Shown here one piece after another: positions 2,415-11,350 of a stretch of 39,892 nt of DNA (position 1 is the first letter of the stretch; every line of letters starts with the position of its first letter). Where the stretch lies: the UHGV virus genome UHGV-0038300; one strand, given 5' to 3'. This DNA comes from a virus. The translations under genes and the position numbers were made by a program. The notes under the pieces are model-generated. The model did no database searches. It had not been told where the DNA came from and saw only the letters and a program-made list of their open reading frames with translations.

Positions 2415-4955
2415 TCATTTTTTTACATTGCCATTTTCAATGGCGAAAATTCTCTCTTCCATATTATCAATTCTCTCCCAGCATTGCTGAATTGATTTAA
2501 CAATAGGTGGGATGAATTCATCGTAACCAAGTGAGTAAACATCATCCCCACCATTTTTCAAGTGATGCTGTAGCCCACCGAACTCAACACCTAATTTTTC
2601 ACACAGTTTCAATACGTCCTGTGCAATAAACCAGTGATGGTATCGTTGACGTTTTTTACTGCCGTCAGGAGTTTTCTGCACTACTTCAAGATATTTTTCT
2701 TCGACATTCTCAATAGCTGATACAGTAATTCCATCAACATCTCGCTCTACTTTTTTTGGTACAATTCTTGTTTTTTCAATAACATCAACATAATCATCAC
2801 GCATATCCCAGCGACCATCGACAGGACGAAGCCCAAGGATAAATTCAATCCCCAGCAAGGTATCTCGGATATCTGTTTTATCACGCGCATCAGATCTGTT
2901 TTGCACAGTTCCATATACATATGTCGTTGTGGAAGAATTGCCAAGCTGCACCTGGTTACTTCCAGACACCCTTGCATCATTGCCAACAGTTGTTGTGTTG
3001 GTAAGTGATGATGTGCTTTCCCCTGATTGAGTTAATCTACCTGAATTATGTCCAATAGCCGTGTTTAATGCGCCGGTTGTATTTGTGACAAGAGAGCCAG
3101 ACCCAATTGCAACGTTACTGCTTCCCGATGTTGTTCCTTTTAATGCCTGCTGTCCAACCGCAACATTATTATCACCCGTTGCTGCTATAAGTGCCATGTG
3201 ACCAATAGAAACGGTAAATGAACCTAGCGTTTGAGTTTCACCGCATGCCCCATAACCAATTACAACAACATTATCTGTAATTGTTGACTCGGTTGCCGCT
3301 CCAGCACCAATAACAACGCTTTCATTCCCGGCAAGATTCTTGCGCATTGCGAACATTCCAATGCCAACATTATCATGCCCAGTCCCTGTACCTGCTGCCT
3401 CCGCAGCACCAAGACAGTTTCCCGCTCTGTAGCCAACCATGGTGTTATTTGAACCAATAGAGAAGTCTCCGGAAAAAGAGCCTACGTATACACTATTAGA
3501 CTGAGAGTAATCTCCAGGATTTCCATTCGCCCGATATCCTACTGCAACTGTATAAATAGTATCTGGAGCCTCAGCCATGGCCTCAAAGCCAACTCCAACG
3601 TTATATCTACCGCCCTTAACTTTTTCTCCTGCACCAAGTCCGAAGAATGAGTTATAGCTCCCGGTTGTTAGCCACTCGCCAGCAACAGAACCTACAGCAG
3701 TGTTTCCTGTTCCAGTACATCGATACAAAGTCAGGAAGCCAACTCCGGTATTATTATTTCCTGAAATATTACTCATCAATGATTTTGACCCAATGGCAGT
3801 ATTGTTAACACCATCGGTCAGATCCTGTAACGCTCGCGGGCCAAATGCTGTATTATCGTAACCCTTTGGCGCTGTTGTTGGATCTGGTAACTCAGGGGTT
3901 AGTTTTTCACCACCACCACCATTGGCACAAAGATTGTAAGATCGAATAAATTCAGCCACTGGCCCAAGTTTTAAATAACCATTGGCAATATTAATTCTGA
4001 CACTTACATTAACTGAGCTACCAGGAGCTTCTATTGTCCTGTCATCAACCCAGGTAAAACTCTGTGGTATCCCGTCATAAGTTAATGTCACATCTCCTTT
4101 ATCATTATAATTATAGAACAATGTATAACGCTCATTTATAGATTCAGAACCTGATGATCCTCCTCTCCTCCACCACTCTGCATTATCAAAAATAAGTAAT
4201 CCCGGACCATAATATTTAGCTTTCTGCCCCAAAATCATAGGGCTTGATAATCTCCATACCCCCTCAGGAACATATATATTGCTACTTATTCTTTCAGCAT
4301 TATTAAAAGCAGTATCACATAGCTCGTCACCACCTTCTTTAGCTCCAAAGTCCAGAACACTGACAGTATCCCGCATCTTATCCTGGAACGTTCGATATAC
4401 TGCTCCAGAACCATACTGAATAAACCAACCAAAACCACCAACAACCCCGGCGATTGCAGCATCGACATAATTACGCATTGAGCGATTATTTACAGCGTCC
4501 TGCTCAAGTGATGGATCTGCAAGGTTAGAAATTCTGTTTTGCTTTGCATCGTAATATTTTGCAAGCAAAGATGGTTTCATCAATGCACGTCTGAACCATC
4601 CAAAACATTGCTGGATCAGCATCGTCAGATAGTCAAAGGCATCTTCATGCACCTCGGGGAAAAATTTTCCCTGATTACGAAGATCAGTCTCCTGCACCAC
4701 ATCAAGCACACGATCTATCGTAATTCGCCATCCAGCAGCAAGCGGCGACGGAAGAACAACAGAACCGCCACTATAAGTGCCCGCCCCAGTTACCGTATAA
4801 CCGGTATCCAGAACCAATTCTGTTACGTTCCCGTTCAGGTCAGACACCTGAACAACCAGGTCGGATTTTTTGAAAATACGGAAGGTGTACGGGAATGATG
4901 TCGTAATGCCGTTACCGGTGTATTCGTTGTGGTCAACTTCGGTTGAGACCGTCAT
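2415..4955 (-). CDS. Tail fibre with glycine-rich fibre repeats and a C-terminal peptidase S74 intramolecular chaperone domain
   Basis: N-terminal TGNGITTSFPYTF fibre-anchor-like motif, long G/N/S-rich repeats, and the C-terminal autoproteolysis motif ...NRSDARDKTDI... followed by a chaperone-like domain. Confidence 0.85.
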   Translation of the reverse strand: MTVSTEVDHNEYTGNGITTSFPYTFRIFKKSDLVVQVSDLNGNVTELVLDTGYTVTGAGTYSGGSVVLPSPLAAGWRITIDRVLDVVQETDLRNQGKFFPEVHEDAFDYLTMLIQQCFGWFRRALMKPSLLAKYYDAKQNRISNLADPSLEQDAVNNRSMRNYVDAAIAGVVGGFGWFIQYGSGAVYRTFQDKMRDTVSVLDFGAKEGGDELCDTAFNNAERISSNIYVPEGVWRLSSPMILGQKAKYYGPGLLIFDNAEWWRRGGSSGSESINERYTLFYNYNDKGDVTLTYDGIPQSFTWVDDRTIEAPGSSVNVSVRINIANGYLKLGPVAEFIRSYNLCANGGGGEKLTPELPDPTTAPKGYDNTAFGPRALQDLTDGVNNTAIGSKSLMSNISGNNNTGVGFLTLYRCTGTGNTAVGSVAGEWLTTGSYNSFFGLGAGEKVKGGRYNVGVGFEAMAEAPDTIYTVAVGYRANGNPGDYSQSNSVYVGSFSGDFSIGSNNTMVGYRAGNCLGAAEAAGTGTGHDNVGIGMFAMRKNLAGNESVVIGAGAATESTITDNVVVIGYGACGETQTLGSFTVSIGHMALIAATGDNNVAVGQQALKGTTSGSSNVAIGSGSLVTNTTGALNTAIGHNSGRLTQSGESTSSLTNTTTVGNDARVSGSNQVQLGNSSTTTYVYGTVQNRSDARDKTDIRDTLLGIEFILGLRPVDGRWDMRDDYVDVIEKTRIVPKKVERDVDGITVSAIENVEEKYLEVVQKTPDGSKKRQRYHHWFIAQDVLKLCEKLGVEFGGLQHHLKNGGDDVYSLGYDEFIPPIVKSIQQCWERIDNMEERIFAIENGNVKK

Positions 4956-5058
4956 GTTAAATCTCCAGATAGTCGCAGCACCCGTTGCGCCGCATATCTG
5001 GTTATTCTATTACCTGAAAAACCACATATGGATAGAAAGACTATAAATACCAATAGAT

Positions 5059-7353: not shown

Positions 7354-7563
7354 ATGGGATTTTGGTTCGCTCGTACAAAAACGAGGGATAATGCACCCAG
7401 CCCTCAGGCAAAAAATGCAGAAGTTCCGGCGTCAGCGCAGGTTAACAAGCGTGGTGGAGTATATATCTCATCACAGCAAATTTCTGAGCTTCCTGAGGTT
7501 AAGGAGATGCGTCGTCTCGCTGCTGCAATTGTTAAACAGGATCTTGCCACTGTAAGGAAGTAG
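7354..7563 (+). CDS. Small hypothetical protein (69 aa), first gene of a two-gene accessory module
   Basis: Strong RBS gaggaggag 6 nt before the ATG; its stop TAG overlaps the GTG start of the next ORF by one nucleotide. Confidence 0.55.
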   Translation: MGFWFARTKTRDNAPSPQAKNAEVPASAQVNKRGGVYISSQQISELPEVKEMRRLAAAIVKQDLATVRK

Positions 7564-8429
7564 TGTTGCTAGCTCTTCTAATTATCCCAATCCTGGTTAG
7601 CGGTTATATTATGATAACCGCTAACCAGTATCATTATTTCCGTTTATACCGACACGAAGGCCAGCTTCTTTATATGAAAGTAGCGGCACTAGGTACATAT
7701 TGCCTTGTTGCATCAGTAATAATTGCAGCCGCTATAAAATATAAATGGCCTGATTTTCACCTAGTTCACGATATGGTGGAAACTTTTAATGTAACATCAA
7801 AACCAGAAACAGATAGAATTTACATGTGGCTGCTTCTTCTCTCAGCCACATCCATTTGCTTCTCTTTGTGTTATGTGTCTGTTGTGTGGGTGAAAGATTT
7901 TCTTCTTGGTTGTTTTTATAAACGTGATATTTACGAGCAAAAAACAGAGGCAATGAAGGCCAGAGTACTGCGAAAAACTTACTCGCAAGGTTCTTTAGAC
8001 TTACTATTGCTTGATGCTATTGAATCGGATCCTAAACGACCAATGCTGATTACTTTATCATCAAACAAAGTGTATGTTGGAATAATAAATGGTTCTGGTG
8101 AACCAACGGAAAATCAGGGTCCGCATCAGCACATATCTTTTGTTCCTTTAATGTCAGGATACAGGAACAAAGAAAACTTATCTGTCACATTCACTAATGC
8201 TTATCCAGGAGAAATACAGGTCAAGCGGACTGCAGCAATAAGAGGAATTAGCAGAAAGAAAGTGCCAGGACTTGAGATCATGGTGTCTATTGACGAAATA
8301 AGTTATATATCATGGTTTGATTTTGAAGTATATAAAGCAACAAATAACAAAGTAGAATCCAGGGGGCACGTTATTCGTGTTACCAAAAATGGAAGAAATA
8401 TATATCAAAGAAATAGCAAAAAAGAATAG
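7563..8429 (+). CDS. Hypothetical membrane protein (3 N-terminal TM helices plus a ~170-aa soluble C-terminal domain); candidate exclusion/abortive-infection-type accessory protein
   Basis: Long ORF with hydrophobic helices at about aa 2-18, 35-58 and 85-110; markedly AT-rich compared with flanking phage genes; exact start (GTG 7563 or a nearby codon) uncertain. Confidence 0.6.
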   Translation: MLLALLIIPILVSGYIMITANQYHYFRLYRHEGQLLYMKVAALGTYCLVASVIIAAAIKYKWPDFHLVHDMVETFNVTSKPETDRIYMWLLLLSATSICFSLCYVSVVWVKDFLLGCFYKRDIYEQKTEAMKARVLRKTYSQGSLDLLLLDAIESDPKRPMLITLSSNKVYVGIINGSGEPTENQGPHQHISFVPLMSGYRNKENLSVTFTNAYPGEIQVKRTAAIRGISRKKVPGLEIMVSIDEISYISWFDFEVYKATNNKVESRGHVIRVTKNGRNIYQRNSKKE

Positions 8430-8521
8430 CCCGCGCTGCGGGCTTTTTTGTGGACGAAACAAAAGTCAGTGCTACACTCATTGACGCCACATTGAGGTGG
8501 CTTATAGATGGAAATTTCACA

Positions 8522-8683
8522 ATGAAAAAAGCATTTGCTGCACTGTTCGTTTTGTTGTCTCTGGTAGCTTCAACTCAGGCCTTTGCCGGTCGTTGTCAGC
8601 ACGACAGCGATACTGCTGCAGACGGCTCCCGCTGCGGTGGGCGTTCTGCGGATTCCCGCCCGGGCGGCGGTGGCATTCGTTAA
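8522..8683 (+). CDS. Small secreted peptide candidate (53 aa; signal peptide then a Gly/Arg/Cys-rich tail)
   Basis: MKKAFAALFVLLSLVASTQAFA|GRC... has a classic Sec signal peptide; sigma70-like -35 TTGACG (8481-8486) and -10 TATAGA (8503-8508) upstream; the RBS is weak. Confidence 0.4.
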   Translation: MKKAFAALFVLLSLVASTQAFAGRCQHDSDTAADGSRCGGRSADSRPGGGGIR

Positions 8684-8705
8684 AAACAAGGCCGCGAAAG
8701 CGGCC
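8682..8705 (-). terminator. Rho-independent terminator closing the late structural operon
   Basis: GC stem ggccgc-gaaa-gcggcc (8690-8705) followed, on the minus strand, by a T-run (complement of aaaaa 8682-8686). Confidence 0.6.
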
Positions 8706-8719
8706 TGTGACATGTCACG
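8706..8719. repeat. Palindrome tGTGACATGTCACg, copy 1 of 3
   Basis: Perfect 12-bp palindrome GTGACATGTCAC immediately abutting the terminator stem; same core at 25588-25601 and 27853-27866. Confidence 0.7.
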
Positions 8720-8725
8720 CTCACG

Positions 8726-8866
8726 TTATGACAAGCCTATGTACCCTGCTACACCAGATAATATCAAAATAACTGCAACAGCAAATTCACCATCATCAAT
8801 GATACATTTACGGTTCATAACGCCAAGTGCAACAAGCGCAAACACAACAAGAATAAAAGCAATCAT
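8726..8866 (-). CDS. Small hydrophobic protein (46 aa, two predicted TM segments), not in the supplied ORF track
   Basis: Manual translation MIAFILVVFALVALGVMNRKCIIDDGEFAVAVILILSGVAGYIGLS*; RBS aaggatga before the ATG; lies between the last ejection-protein gene and the terminator. Confidence 0.4.
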   Translation of the reverse strand: MIAFILVVFALVALGVMNRKCIIDDGEFAVAVILILSGVAGYIGLS

Positions 8867-8875
8867 TTCTCATCC

Positions 8876-11350
8876 TTATTGCGGAGTGACATCCTGAGGT
8901 CGCCACCAGTATGTCTGGTTAAACTCTTTCTTCGAACGTTGCTCCATTTTACGCAAATAACCTGGTGAAAAATACTCCTGCATCTGGTTAAAGATCATGT
9001 GATCGAGAGCCGCCTTTAAGTACCAGAGATTCGCACCTGGCATCAGACCTTTCCCCAGCTTGACCAGATCACCACCAGTCTGCTCATTCTTCCCTTCCAC
9101 AGCATTTAACGGTATGCCCTGAGCAATCTTCACTACGTCATCAACCAGACCAGCTACCGGGCCAAGCATCGACGCCAGCGCGCCGCTTCCGTACCTAGTG
9201 TGATCTGACAATAAAAAGTCACCGTAAAGGCCAAGACCACCACCTTTCAGTAGAGCACCAAGCCAAAATTTAGCAGCATCTTCTCCTGTCATCTCACGAG
9301 GATTACGACCAGACGCAAGGTCGTTAAGTTGCTGCGACAAAGCGCCAAGAATGGTCGTACTGGCAATAAACGTCGCAATATATGCCGCACGCCCACCAGC
9401 AGACGGCATACCCATAGCGCGTGACCAGTGACGCATAACCACCGAGATAGGGAACGATTTAAACAGGAAAACACTTCTCGTTAATTCACCTTTCCATGTT
9501 CCACGCTGAATACCAGAACCGGTTATCAGTTGCTCACGTGCTCCCGGTGTAATAACAGCCATATCAACTTCTTCAGTTACGGCACCGAGCAGTTTACGCA
9601 TTGCCTCAAATTTCACGCGTTCAGACTCACCAAGATGTTTAACTGCTGAATCAGGGATACGCATAATGCTTTCCGGTGTCAGCATCGTATTATTACCGTT
9701 CCCCCAGTCCTCCTGTTGCGCCAGCTTCCATACGCTCCAGTCTGTGTCAGTAATCCCTTTGCTTTTCAGGATACGAAAATCAGAGTCATCGAGGCTACGA
9801 AGGTCTGGTGTCCGTGACACTACTTCTCCCAGGCTTCCCATCATGGTTACGCCATAGGCGCGCTTGTGCGCATCTGACCATGCTGTAAGCCCACTGGCAC
9901 GCATTACCGCCGTTGCCGCCCAACGAGACACTGACGGCCCCATATTATCCATCGCCCAGCGGTTAACGCTGCCAAGTAGAGATTCCATCGCCAGACCAGC
10001 GCGGCGCGCCCGCGCAAGTTCTGTACGGTTCGTTGGGTCCATAGCTTCAAGCTGGTTGCGGAATAACTGGTTCATTGGAAGGTTGGTAACCTTCGCAGAC
10101 AGATACATGGTTCCAAGATCAGAGAACGATGACAGCAACGCGGATCCGAGTCTGCTGGCAACCAGCCAGTTGCGGATATTGTCAGACCATCGCGCGATGT
10201 GCGGATTCGCTACAGGCTGTGTCTTTCCGGAAATAAAGTTGTACAGATTCTCTGTGTTGTTCGCCAGCCGCTCGACTTTACCGGTTTTACTCGGGTTAGC
10301 TGTTGCCGTTTCTGCCTTAACCTGATCAAGAAGGGAGCGGAAAACATGATCGGGGTTTGGACCATATGTTTCCACCAGAGCAATATCTTTACTGATACCT
10401 TCCAGGTGACCGACCATGATTTCCCATAGAGAGCGATCACCATAAAGTTGTTGATATTGGAGATAGGAATCTGCATCTTTGAAATGTATCTGTCGTGATG
10501 CATTACCACGGTTAGCACGTGCGCCGGAAATTCGCATTCCGGTATCAGTAAGCTTATTCAGCCCACCAGTAGCGATCGTGTTATAAGCCTCTCCAAGAAA
10601 TGCAGACAACTCGGCATCGTTCATCAGTTGTCCATCGGCTCGGGTATAATATTTGCGATCCAGCTTACCTATAACATCGCCAACCCACTTATCCTTTGAT
10701 ACCGCCCCAACCTTTTCCATAGAATGATGTTGAGGGATCCCCCAGTTTTCGAGATAGCCAATGTCCCCACCAGCATCATTAAACCGGCGGCGCAGCAGCT
10801 CTGTAACTTCTCTCCACGCCTTAGCACCTTTTCTTGCTTTAGCATTGCCAGTATTTTGCCCTCGCATTTCATATACCAGGTCACGCACGCCAGCTTCATC
10901 TTCAAACAGGCCAAAAAAGCGAGGATCAACTGCTTCAAATGCCTCTTGCAATTGACTCAATGCATAATCACGAGTGGCTTTTGTTCTGGACTCAACAGAG
11001 AGGAAATTCGATTTACCGTCTGCATTAAAAGCAATAGTACGGTTAAGAGCGCCAAGTTTCCCATCAGCCCCTTGATAGCTATTGATAAATTTATCCAATC
11101 TCTGACGTGCGGCTATAGTGAGGGCCACACGACGTTTCTTTAATGCCGCTTCTCGCTGTAATTCTTCAGATGCCAATTGTGCTGCACGATATAGCCGCTC
11201 TGATTCGGAAAGTTGTCTCCACGACATCGGGTCATCACGAGCAATGGAGCGCATATTTCGATAAATGCGGTCTTCAATGTTCTGTATTTCTCGCGCCGTT
11301 AACGTGCGCTGCGCCGCCTGCTGGACCGCTTGTATACATTCCTGTCTCAT
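8876..11350 (-). CDS. Large internal virion / DNA-ejection protein (gp16-position in a T7-like order)
   Basis: 824-aa ORF at the end of the structural operon after two other large ejection-type proteins; no enzymatic motif recognised. Confidence 0.6.
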   Translation of the reverse strand: MRQECIQAVQQAAQRTLTAREIQNIEDRIYRNMRSIARDDPMSWRQLSESERLYRAAQLASEELQREAALKKRRVALTIAARQRLDKFINSYQGADGKLGALNRTIAFNADGKSNFLSVESRTKATRDYALSQLQEAFEAVDPRFFGLFEDEAGVRDLVYEMRGQNTGNAKARKGAKAWREVTELLRRRFNDAGGDIGYLENWGIPQHHSMEKVGAVSKDKWVGDVIGKLDRKYYTRADGQLMNDAELSAFLGEAYNTIATGGLNKLTDTGMRISGARANRGNASRQIHFKDADSYLQYQQLYGDRSLWEIMVGHLEGISKDIALVETYGPNPDHVFRSLLDQVKAETATANPSKTGKVERLANNTENLYNFISGKTQPVANPHIARWSDNIRNWLVASRLGSALLSSFSDLGTMYLSAKVTNLPMNQLFRNQLEAMDPTNRTELARARRAGLAMESLLGSVNRWAMDNMGPSVSRWAATAVMRASGLTAWSDAHKRAYGVTMMGSLGEVVSRTPDLRSLDDSDFRILKSKGITDTDWSVWKLAQQEDWGNGNNTMLTPESIMRIPDSAVKHLGESERVKFEAMRKLLGAVTEEVDMAVITPGAREQLITGSGIQRGTWKGELTRSVFLFKSFPISVVMRHWSRAMGMPSAGGRAAYIATFIASTTILGALSQQLNDLASGRNPREMTGEDAAKFWLGALLKGGGLGLYGDFLLSDHTRYGSGALASMLGPVAGLVDDVVKIAQGIPLNAVEGKNEQTGGDLVKLGKGLMPGANLWYLKAALDHMIFNQMQEYFSPGYLRKMEQRSKKEFNQTYWWRPQDVTPQ

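Follow-up and report, generated by a model that had tools for sequence, protein, structure and literature searches.

The interval between the stop codon of the gene for the internal virion protein IVP-D and the next intrinsic terminator is, as the comparison of related genomes shows, an exchangeable slot, with at least three mutually unrelated types of occupants that assort independently of the gp17 sequence. In the window, which is the whole stretch of 39,892 nucleotides analyzed here (UHGV virus genome UHGV-0038300), this slot contains a short open reading frame (ORF) of 46 codons, which is almost certainly a real gene and encodes a membrane hairpin. The product of this ORF may, as a tentative reading, be an accessory inner-membrane factor that blocks the DNA entry of other phages. 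As a case of phage mosaicism, the slot pattern is tidy but unsurprising to specialists, and it also offers a clean and cheap experimental handle on the late small membrane proteins of short-tailed temperate phages.

Identity of the ORF

The window belongs to a phiV10/epsilon15-like temperate podovirus of the genus Uetakevirus. Around the ORF, a 1-kb stretch shared 98 to 99% identity with phiV10, phiv142-3, HEMP4, and PAS61; for the Salmonella phages SPN1S, SPC32H/N, and PAT1, the value was 83%. The ORF is PhiV10p21 (YP_512275.1), a member of PHROG 7892 and RefSeq entry WP_000559990.1, and the gene is not new. PHROG 7892, a family of unknown function, was the only PHROG matched by the 46-aa protein, and it was matched over the full length (E = 5.5e-33, residues 1 to 46 on profile positions 1 to 46 of 46). 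The copy in PAS61 was 100% and that in phiV10 97.8% identical to the 46-aa protein. PhiV10p21 likewise lies between the gp17 homologue and the terminator, and there is no substantive difference between the ORF and PhiV10p21 or its orthologues in SPN1S, SPC32H/N, 65FD/66FD, and PAS61.

The record of PhiV10p21 reads [quoted passage not shown] The gene is likewise annotated in SPN1S, SPN9TCW, SPC32H/N, and 65FD/66FD, and the NCBI pipeline PGAP calls it in Escherichia coli chromosomes as WP_000559990.1. The original prediction had described the ORF as unannotated, which is correct for the window's own track but not for phiV10, SPN1S, SPC32H/N, 65FD/66FD, and the E. coli chromosomes processed by PGAP. 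Four of 16 examined annotated records with the ORF or a slot analogue left it unannotated, namely, VB_ST_SPNIS2, phiv142-3, BUCT711, and Shamal. Small hydrophobic ORFs are often missed by gene callers, so that a confirmation of coding is useful for annotation; the gene itself is of little import, having been annotated since the phiV10 genome record. A literature search on epsilon15 gp18, PhiV10p21, and the virion proteomics of this phage group yielded nothing on the 46-aa gene in the papers found.

Start signals and end of the operon

The ORF is on the minus strand, with its ATG at 8866 and its TAA stop at 8728 to 8726, as seen in the sequence and the ORF list. It existed as predicted, and the 46 codons plus stop (8726..8866) were assigned to the PhiV10p21 family by sequence, profile, and allele evidence. 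The translation is MIAFILVVFALVALGVMNRKCIIDDGEFAVAVILILSGVAGYIGLS. According to the ORF list, the upstream gene, also on the minus strand, extends over 8876..11350, including its TAA at 8878 to 8876, and encodes an internal virion or ejection protein (IVP-D) of 824 aa. This protein is a homologue of PhiV10p20 and epsilon15 gp17 and of the T7 gp16 type, and it is referred to here as gp17. It matched PHROG 684, “virion structural protein” (E = 0), and was 99% identical to proteins of the phiV10 group and 27.6% identical to epsilon15 gp17. Hardies and co-workers assigned epsilon15 gp17 and T7 gp16 to one class, internal virion protein D (PMC4819975).

A Shine-Dalgarno sequence, AAGGA (8873..8877, minus strand, reading from 8877 to 8873), shares bases with the TAA stop of gp17 and is positioned 6 nt 5′ of the ATG of the ORF, so that the good ribosome-binding site (RBS) claimed initially was indeed present. 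It also forms the left edge of the slot, as indicated by the sequence and by the break of identity to phiv142-3. The minus-strand junction from the end of gp17 to the start of the ORF reads CAA TAA GGATGAGAA ATG. The ORF follows directly downstream of the ejection protein gene as had been stated, with a gap from the gp17 stop to the ORF start of 9 nt instead of 8 nt.

The right edge of the slot is an intrinsic terminator on the same strand (8682..8706), identified by a terminator scan, by folding, and by the phiV10 annotation. It begins 19 nt 3′ of the ORF stop and is composed of a 7-bp GC-rich stem (8706 to 8689) followed by TGTTTTT, with the RNA sequence AGGCCGC-UUUC-GCGGCCU and then UGUUUUU. 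The hairpin was found in the predicted minimum free energy (MFE) and centroid structures alike, and the depositors of the phiV10 record marked the same element as a terminator. Since this terminator is located downstream on the same strand, the ORF is the last cistron, and it closes the late virion/ejection protein operon, as the original prediction had it.

Hexamer consensus scanning of the 530 nt upstream of the ORF revealed no sigma-70-like site with at least 9 of 12 matches, and relaxed scans of the window and five relatives gave only sites with 8 of 12 matches, which were not conserved between the relatives. Of the predicted small, late-expressed membrane protein, the small membrane protein gene could be confirmed, and late expression, coupled to gp17, is probable because a separate promoter for the ORF was not found.

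Two other gene products were considered and rejected. A fusion with gp17 by readthrough or frameshift would be in frame in the E. coli type, but TAA and TGA intervene; the Salmonella type has a 10-nt gap and a different frame, and in L164, another ORF and 54 nt are in between. A longer form of 55 aa (MLLRNKDVKM...), as called by some gene callers, is possible only in the Salmonella/Citrobacter type, where it has no RBS. In the E. coli type, it is barred by an in-frame TGA, and the conserved start is that of the 46-aa form.

Evidence for coding

The GRAVY value of the 46-aa protein, 1.78, was the highest among the 249 six-frame ORFs of 35 to 80 aa in the window, followed by 1.25 for the runner-up. 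Conservation of the frame in related phages had been named beforehand as a check, and the frame proved to be intact in 52 of the 54 sequences examined, the 52 including four alleles with a frameshifted C-terminal tail. The sequences came from 52 related loci in addition to phiV10 and the window. The ORF occurred as 30 distinct nucleotide alleles with a pooled pN/pS of 0.255 and with 29, 16, and 41 variable sites at the three codon positions, respectively. In four of the five other frames, pN/pS was above 1, and it was 0.288 in the fifth, the antisense frame that has its third positions in common with the ORF.

This near-equal value of the antisense frame, together with the very short length of the ORF, would fit a chance ORF or a remnant without function. 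An antisense ORF of 104 aa on the plus strand (8583..8897) was, however, interrupted by stops in 33 of 39 distinct relatives, so that the antisense frame is not the conserved feature; it also runs across the terminator and the convergent gene. A chance origin is, moreover, difficult to reconcile with the extreme hydrophobicity of the product, with the RBS, start codon ATG, and terminator of the ORF, or with a frame kept, over the 30 alleles, at 67 to 100% identity across the four genera Escherichia, Salmonella, Citrobacter, and Hafnia. The same layout persisted in members of the family that were only 45 to 50% identical. All this makes a chance ORF or remnant extremely improbable.

The frame was kept in about 100 related loci. 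The ORF was present in one Citrobacter genome, in 14 metagenome loci, and in 51 IMG/VR loci. Among 5.8 billion proteins searched, 42 clusters matched, all of them at least 74% identical and belonging to Escherichia, Salmonella, Citrobacter, and Hafnia. When 1.84 billion representative proteins were searched with a profile, just five clusters were retrieved, all of the same small family, which indicates that the PhiV10p21 family is narrow. The entire stretch from the end of gp17 through the ORF to the terminator was contained in 59 of 5,426 complete E. coli genomes. About 18% of the IMG/VR copies of the ORF (51 loci) were altered: the C-terminal part was frameshifted in four, the stop was lost in three, one was truncated, and one had a deletion at the N terminus. 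These changed copies are the remaining point in favor of a functionless remnant, and they indicate that the ORF is dispensable, at least in prophages.

Features of the encoded protein

The two hydrophobic helices stated in the original prediction were recovered. Hydrophobic stretches comprise residues 2 to 17 and 29 to 45, and AlphaFold2 with an alignment of 43 sequences predicted a helical hairpin with helices 2 to 19 and 25 to 45 and a mean pLDDT of 92. The 46-residue protein is accordingly modeled as two membrane-length hydrophobic helices connected by a conserved polar turn of 5 to 11 residues (NRKxIIxDGEF) in a predicted hairpin. On the minus strand, the first helix, IAFILVVFALVALGVM, is encoded by codons 2 to 17 (8816..8863; hydropathy scan and AlphaFold2 helix 2 to 19); the turn, NRKCIIDDGEF, by codons 18 to 28 (8783..8815; family alignment); and the second helix, AVAVILILSGVAGYIGL, by codons 29 to 45 (8732..8782; alignment and AlphaFold2).

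The best-conserved segment of the family was the turn with its flanks, M17-N-R-K-x-I-I-x-D-G-E-F28. Residues N18, R19, K20, I22, G26, and F28 were at least 90% conserved, and I23, D25, and E27 were invariant in the family alignment. A face of small residues on helix 2 was also conserved, L36-S-G-x-A-G-Y-x-G44. The R, the K, and I22 of the turn and the pattern L..VA.Y.G survived in members that were about 45 to 50% identical. The C terminus reads ...SGVAGYIGLS, and charged residues are absent beyond E27.

A search with the predicted hairpin against the PDB retrieved only generic helical hairpins, all with E > 2. In the Pfam scan at E ≤ 1, DUF5367 alone appeared, a match below the cutoff (E = 0.089), and the PADLOC defense models gave no match for the 46-aa protein. 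Trypsin is predicted to yield only two peptides of the protein, of 19 and 26 residues, and because both are very hydrophobic, standard virion proteomics would usually miss them, so that a failure to detect a peptide would say little against the gene.

An exchangeable slot downstream of gp17

The ORF began 9 to 10 nt past the gp17 stop in 50 of 52 IMG/VR loci and followed a gp17 homologue in all 14 metagenome loci. Its location directly 3′ of gp17 and the translational coupling in essentially every locus would agree with an accessory function in ejection, by which the protein would be carried in the virion or linked to its assembly, either packaged with gp15 to gp17 or as a chaperone of gp17, and would aid the insertion of the IVP-D conduit into the inner membrane of the next host. 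The coupling to gp17 is tight and could equally well be compatible with such a function tied to the ejection proteins themselves. In addition, close relatives and epsilon15 always have some small membrane protein after gp17, and such a protein is also found sporadically in more distant phages, for instance, in Shamal and Acinetobacter phage 4316.

The sequences that occupy this position do not agree well with an ejection function. In phiv142-3, the gp17 of which is 99.4% identical, the nucleotide identity to the window extended through gp17 and TAAGGA to position 8873 and resumed at 8719 at the terminator; in Tyrion, too, homology picked up again at the terminator. The replaced interval of phiv142-3 encodes, first, a two-helix protein of 57 aa, the GTG start codon of which is again 9 nt past the end of gp17, and, second, a multi-helix protein of 98 aa (PHROG 3075). 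A census of 78 usable IMG/VR loci, in which the C terminus of gp17 was at least 97% identical to that of the window, revealed a small hydrophobic ORF 8 to 10 nt after the gp17 stop in all 78 loci. These were 31 ORFs of the 46-aa type (type A), 39 of the 57-aa two-helix type (type B), and 8 of a 41-aa one-helix type (type C), which is followed by a gene for a 126-aa lipoprotein. The slot occupant of Tyrion is gp19, which has 103 aa, two helices, and a charged tail. That of epsilon15 is gp18 (NP_848226.1, PHROG 29212), a two-helix protein of 64 aa; its gene shares 4 nt with gp17 and precedes a terminator.

Epsilon15 gp18, type B, type C, and Tyrion gp19 are all in the same slot, from a 4-nt overlap to a 12-nt gap after IVP-D and before the terminator. 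All slot occupants begin with a hydrophobic helix that carries no charge; basic residues come next, and a second helix is present in most of these proteins. They differ from the 46-aa protein in matching other PHROGs or none and in having no detectable sequence relationship to it; homology of types A and B was rejected with an hhalign probability of 0.7%. By these comparisons, the slot occupants are apparently analogues in position and architecture, not homologues.

The gp17 sequence did not follow the slot type. Mean gp17 identity was 0.993 within a slot type versus 0.992 between types, polymorphisms of gp17 were common to phages of different slot types, fixed differences did not occur, and no co-variation of gp17 and slot type was found. 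The ejection-channel component considered in the original prediction is disfavored by these data, since unrelated proteins replace the ORF exactly beside a 99%-identical gp17 with no compensating gp17 changes, no gp17 substitutions tracking the slot type occur, and other groups of the epsilon15 type are without the gene. Among phages with the operon for IVP-A to IVP-D, the ORF was absent downstream of the homologous gp17 in six, YeP4, Piluca, BcepC6B, RpY1, Flu_PA14_3, and VP2. In a member of the family that was 49% identical, the synteny was the same with a gp17 that was 87% identical, which means that the 46-aa protein evolves about four times faster than gp17, as calculated from this one member, and this also does not point to a partner in ejection. 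Frameshifted and truncated alleles are in circulation. In the distant phage L164, a two-helix ORF of 92 aa and a gap of 54 nt separate the family member from the gp17-like gene, and the family member has its own RBS, indicating that the ORF is an autonomous unit and not an appendage of gp17. A specific virion partner of gp17 is disfavored by the sequence comparisons, and a virion-borne or assembly-linked accessory of ejection seems very unlikely.

The ORF had a GC content of 0.38 and a GC3 of 0.26, compared to 0.49 and 0.45 for gp17. Of the features of morons, the ORF has its own terminator, a foreign-like composition, and exact replacement as a cassette in phiv142-3, and it has no promoter of its own among the sites scanned. 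Since the slot is always filled by small membrane proteins, the sequences of which change independently of the virion genes, the ORF behaves as an accessory, conflict-related gene and not as a structural gene.

A possible role in lysis

Small late membrane proteins with two helices may also act in lysis, and the original prediction had listed a holin-like lysis timer. The S21 68 holin is small, has two transmembrane helices, is produced late, and carries a face of small residues on helix 2. The 46-aa protein resembles class II holins or pinholins such as S68 of phage 21 in its small size and its two transmembrane helices. It differs from them since class II holins have a charged cytoplasmic C-terminal tail and a position in the lysis cassette, and the 46-aa protein has neither. 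The lysis cassette of the window is at 292 to 2095, about 6.6 kb from the ORF and beyond the tailspike gene, and it encodes Phage_holin_8, Phage_holin_3_7, a GH19 endolysin, and an Rz spanin. No holin family model matched the 46-aa protein in the Pfam scan at E ≤ 1. The complete lysis cassette elsewhere and the absence of a charged tail make a role as a holin unlikely, and the lysis timer was not upheld.

Alternatively, the protein may modulate the timing of lysis by pairing of the hairpin in the membrane with one of the two holin family proteins of the phage, similar to an antiholin or co-holin. It would tune holin triggering, and swaps of the cassette would retune the lysis time for different hosts. 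Late expression, the purely membrane-embedded nature of the protein, and the conserved small-residue face of helix 2 are consistent with such a modulator. Tyrion gp19, and also the 92-aa ORF of L164, have the layout of class II holins, with two helices and a highly charged C-terminal tail, and the 98-aa partner of type B weakly matched Phage_holin_5_2 with a sub-threshold E value of 0.027. On the other hand, a full cassette with two holin family proteins, endolysin, and spanin is already present, the ORF adjoins no lysis gene, and the 46-aa protein is without a charged tail, a dual start, and a match to a holin family. A modulator of lysis timing is unlikely.

Possible interference with DNA entry

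The reading ranked first, that the protein interferes with the DNA-entry conduits of incoming phages, is based on P22 SieA and T4 Imm as the nearest precedents in function. The ORF would be translated late in the lytic cycle by coupling to gp17, and the 46-aa protein would form a tight hairpin in the inner membrane. According to the positive-inside rule, the R19-K20 turn should be cytoplasmic and both uncharged termini periplasmic. The protein would be a dispensable accessory factor that acts in the infected cell and not in the virion, and the hairpin may, in the manner of T4 Imm or P22 SieA, interfere with the conduit through which the DNA of secondarily adsorbing phages passes the inner membrane. 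Such exclusion may also guard a cell that has already accumulated holin from premature depolarization by secondary injections. In support of superinfection exclusion, the neighborhood codes for other envelope-targeted accessory proteins.

T4 Imm has about 83 aa and two predicted helices. It inhibits DNA injection (PMC11436027). The 46-aa protein is similar to it as a small, mostly membrane-embedded phage protein, with Imm blocking DNA injection at the inner membrane (PMC11436027), and differs from it in that Imm is the product of an early gene of a virulent myovirus. [quoted passage not shown] In contrast to the 46-aa protein, SieA has 162 to 164 aa and three predicted helices, and the SieA motif FxRYPxEAxxFNK (PMC10883804) was absent from the 46-aa sequence. 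The sieA gene is convergent to gene 16, has its own promoter, and is expressed in the prophage, whereas the ORF is co-oriented with gp17 and no promoter was detected. No sequence or profile similarity of the 46-aa protein to SieA (types A to C), Imm, or any PADLOC defense model was found with Pfam, PHROG, and PADLOC. A superinfection-immunity family model, such as Pfam's Imm family (PF14373), was not among the Pfam matches at E ≤ 1.

Since the ORF is co-oriented with the late operon and no promoter was detected, expression in the lysogen is unsupported, and it is in the lysogen that exclusion is most profitable. An exclusion that acts only late in infection has a weaker selective rationale. 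With the ORF co-oriented and promoterless, unlike sieA, and with late-only exclusion in need of an extra argument, interference with the DNA entry of other phages was given a probability of only about 0.3.

The protein may instead be another membrane-directed accessory that is linked to neither entry nor lysis, for instance, a small hydrophobic protein that inhibits a component of the host envelope, or else a mild membrane toxin or depolarizing peptide. In serotype-converting phages (D3 with Iap, epsilon15), small hydrophobic peptides inhibit the host O-antigen polymerase. Size and composition of the 46-aa protein are as in known membrane-acting phage peptides, the composition looks foreign, the region is rich in envelope-directed accessory genes, and the conserved polar turn could serve as a specific contact site. 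None of these features, however, points to any specific target, late-only expression is ill-suited to lysogenic conversion, and a light look revealed no antisense RNA or antitoxin partner in the style of a type I toxin. Such a role is rather unlikely.

A more general version of interference with DNA entry would be that the slot of Uetakevirus always holds a small, N-out membrane hairpin that is coupled to gp17 and swapped by recombination and that these hairpins form a new late class of “conduit immunity.” This generalization is doubtful. If true, the hairpins would block the ejection conduits of superinfecting phages or shield the inner membrane of the producing cell from its own membrane-active ejection proteins, and they would constitute a previously unrecognized, functionally convergent module of podovirus genomes.

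As a separate observation, the window also encodes a 288-aa membrane protein on the plus strand (7563 to 8429), which matches the orientation of sieA more closely than the ORF does.

Alternative occupants of the slot

The exchangeable position between the stop codon of gp17, the gene for the last ejection protein, and the operon terminator was occupied in some related loci by cassettes other than the 46-aa two-helix small ORF (type A). The type B cassette, located at positions 4535..5018 of the phiv142-3 locus (L002) and 3985..4467 of the BUCT711 locus (L005), started with a gene that used GTG or TTG as its start codon. This gene encoded a 57-aa protein with two helices and was unannotated in both records. 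It was followed by a gene for a 98-aa multi-helix protein assigned to PHROG 3075, which matched Phage_holin_5_2 only weakly and below the threshold (E = 0.027). In the type C cassette (L084, 2262..2853), the first gene began 8 nt past the gp17 stop codon and encoded a 41-aa single-helix protein; the second encoded a predicted 126-aa lipoprotein with the signal ...LLVGC that belonged to PHROG 3716, a family of unknown function. Lipoproteins that phages encode in accessory regions often act in exclusion by blocking receptors.

A distant phage (L164) with a gp17-like protein of 1,129 aa contained at positions 3668..4138 a 92-aa two-helix ORF followed by a 45-aa member of the small-ORF family. The 92-aa ORF and Tyrion gp19 (L004, 3988..4299) had in common the C-terminal motif LWLKRKKLE inside a charged tail, and this layout matched that of class II holins. 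Over their entire lengths, the similarity of both proteins was not significant in BLASTP (E = 1.7).

Altered alleles and low diversity at the 3' end of gp17

Several independent contigs (L053 to L056, L159, and L160; at about 3001..3147 in most of them) carried a frameshifted version of the small ORF, with RVHRFVIT in place of the last six residues. Stop-loss alleles occurred in L049 to L051, and one locus each carried a truncation at residue 20 (L065) or an N-terminal deletion (L058). It may be that the protein tolerates loss of the C-terminal end of helix 2; alternatively, some prophages may harbor a decaying copy of the gene.

Among 33 distinct relatives, the diversity at the third codon position was 0.06 to 0.13 in the last 120 nt of gp17 (window 8879..8998, minus strand), whereas the 480 nt before this stretch showed about 0.3. 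No promoter-like site was found in this stretch that could account for the low diversity. Possible explanations are recombination that homogenizes the slot junction, an embedded signal for translation coupling, or a codon composition rich in Met, Trp, and two-fold codons.

Genes convergent on the structural operon

A gene for a small secreted or signal-peptide protein (window 8450..8683, plus strand; MKKAFAALFVLLSLVASTQAFAGRCQHDSDTAADGSRCGGRSADSRPGGGGIR) converged on the small ORF, and both ended at one terminator region. The true start of this gene is likely the ATG at position 8522. Its product matched PHROG 14503, "membrane associated protein" of the moron category, and also PHROG 3117. The stretch at about 8600 to 8720, comprising the 3' part of this gene and the terminator, matched many E. 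coli genomes by itself, where the gp17 portion of the query did not match, and thus travels separately.

Between this gene and a 288-aa ORF (window 7563..8429, plus strand), a perfect 7-bp GC-rich hairpin at 8428..8444, flanked by T-runs on both strands, formed a bidirectional terminator-like site. The product of the 288-aa ORF possessed hydrophobic N-terminal helices and matched PHROG 3630 (unknown function) and no Pfam family, and the composition of the ORF was clearly foreign, with a GC content of 0.37 and a GC3 of 0.30. The ORF converged on the last ejection gene, and it preceded the Bro-N antirepressor and the tailspike gene. In this position and orientation, the 288-aa ORF was the closest counterpart in the window of sieA, the P22 superinfection exclusion gene, and is a candidate for an exclusion or abortive-infection gene.
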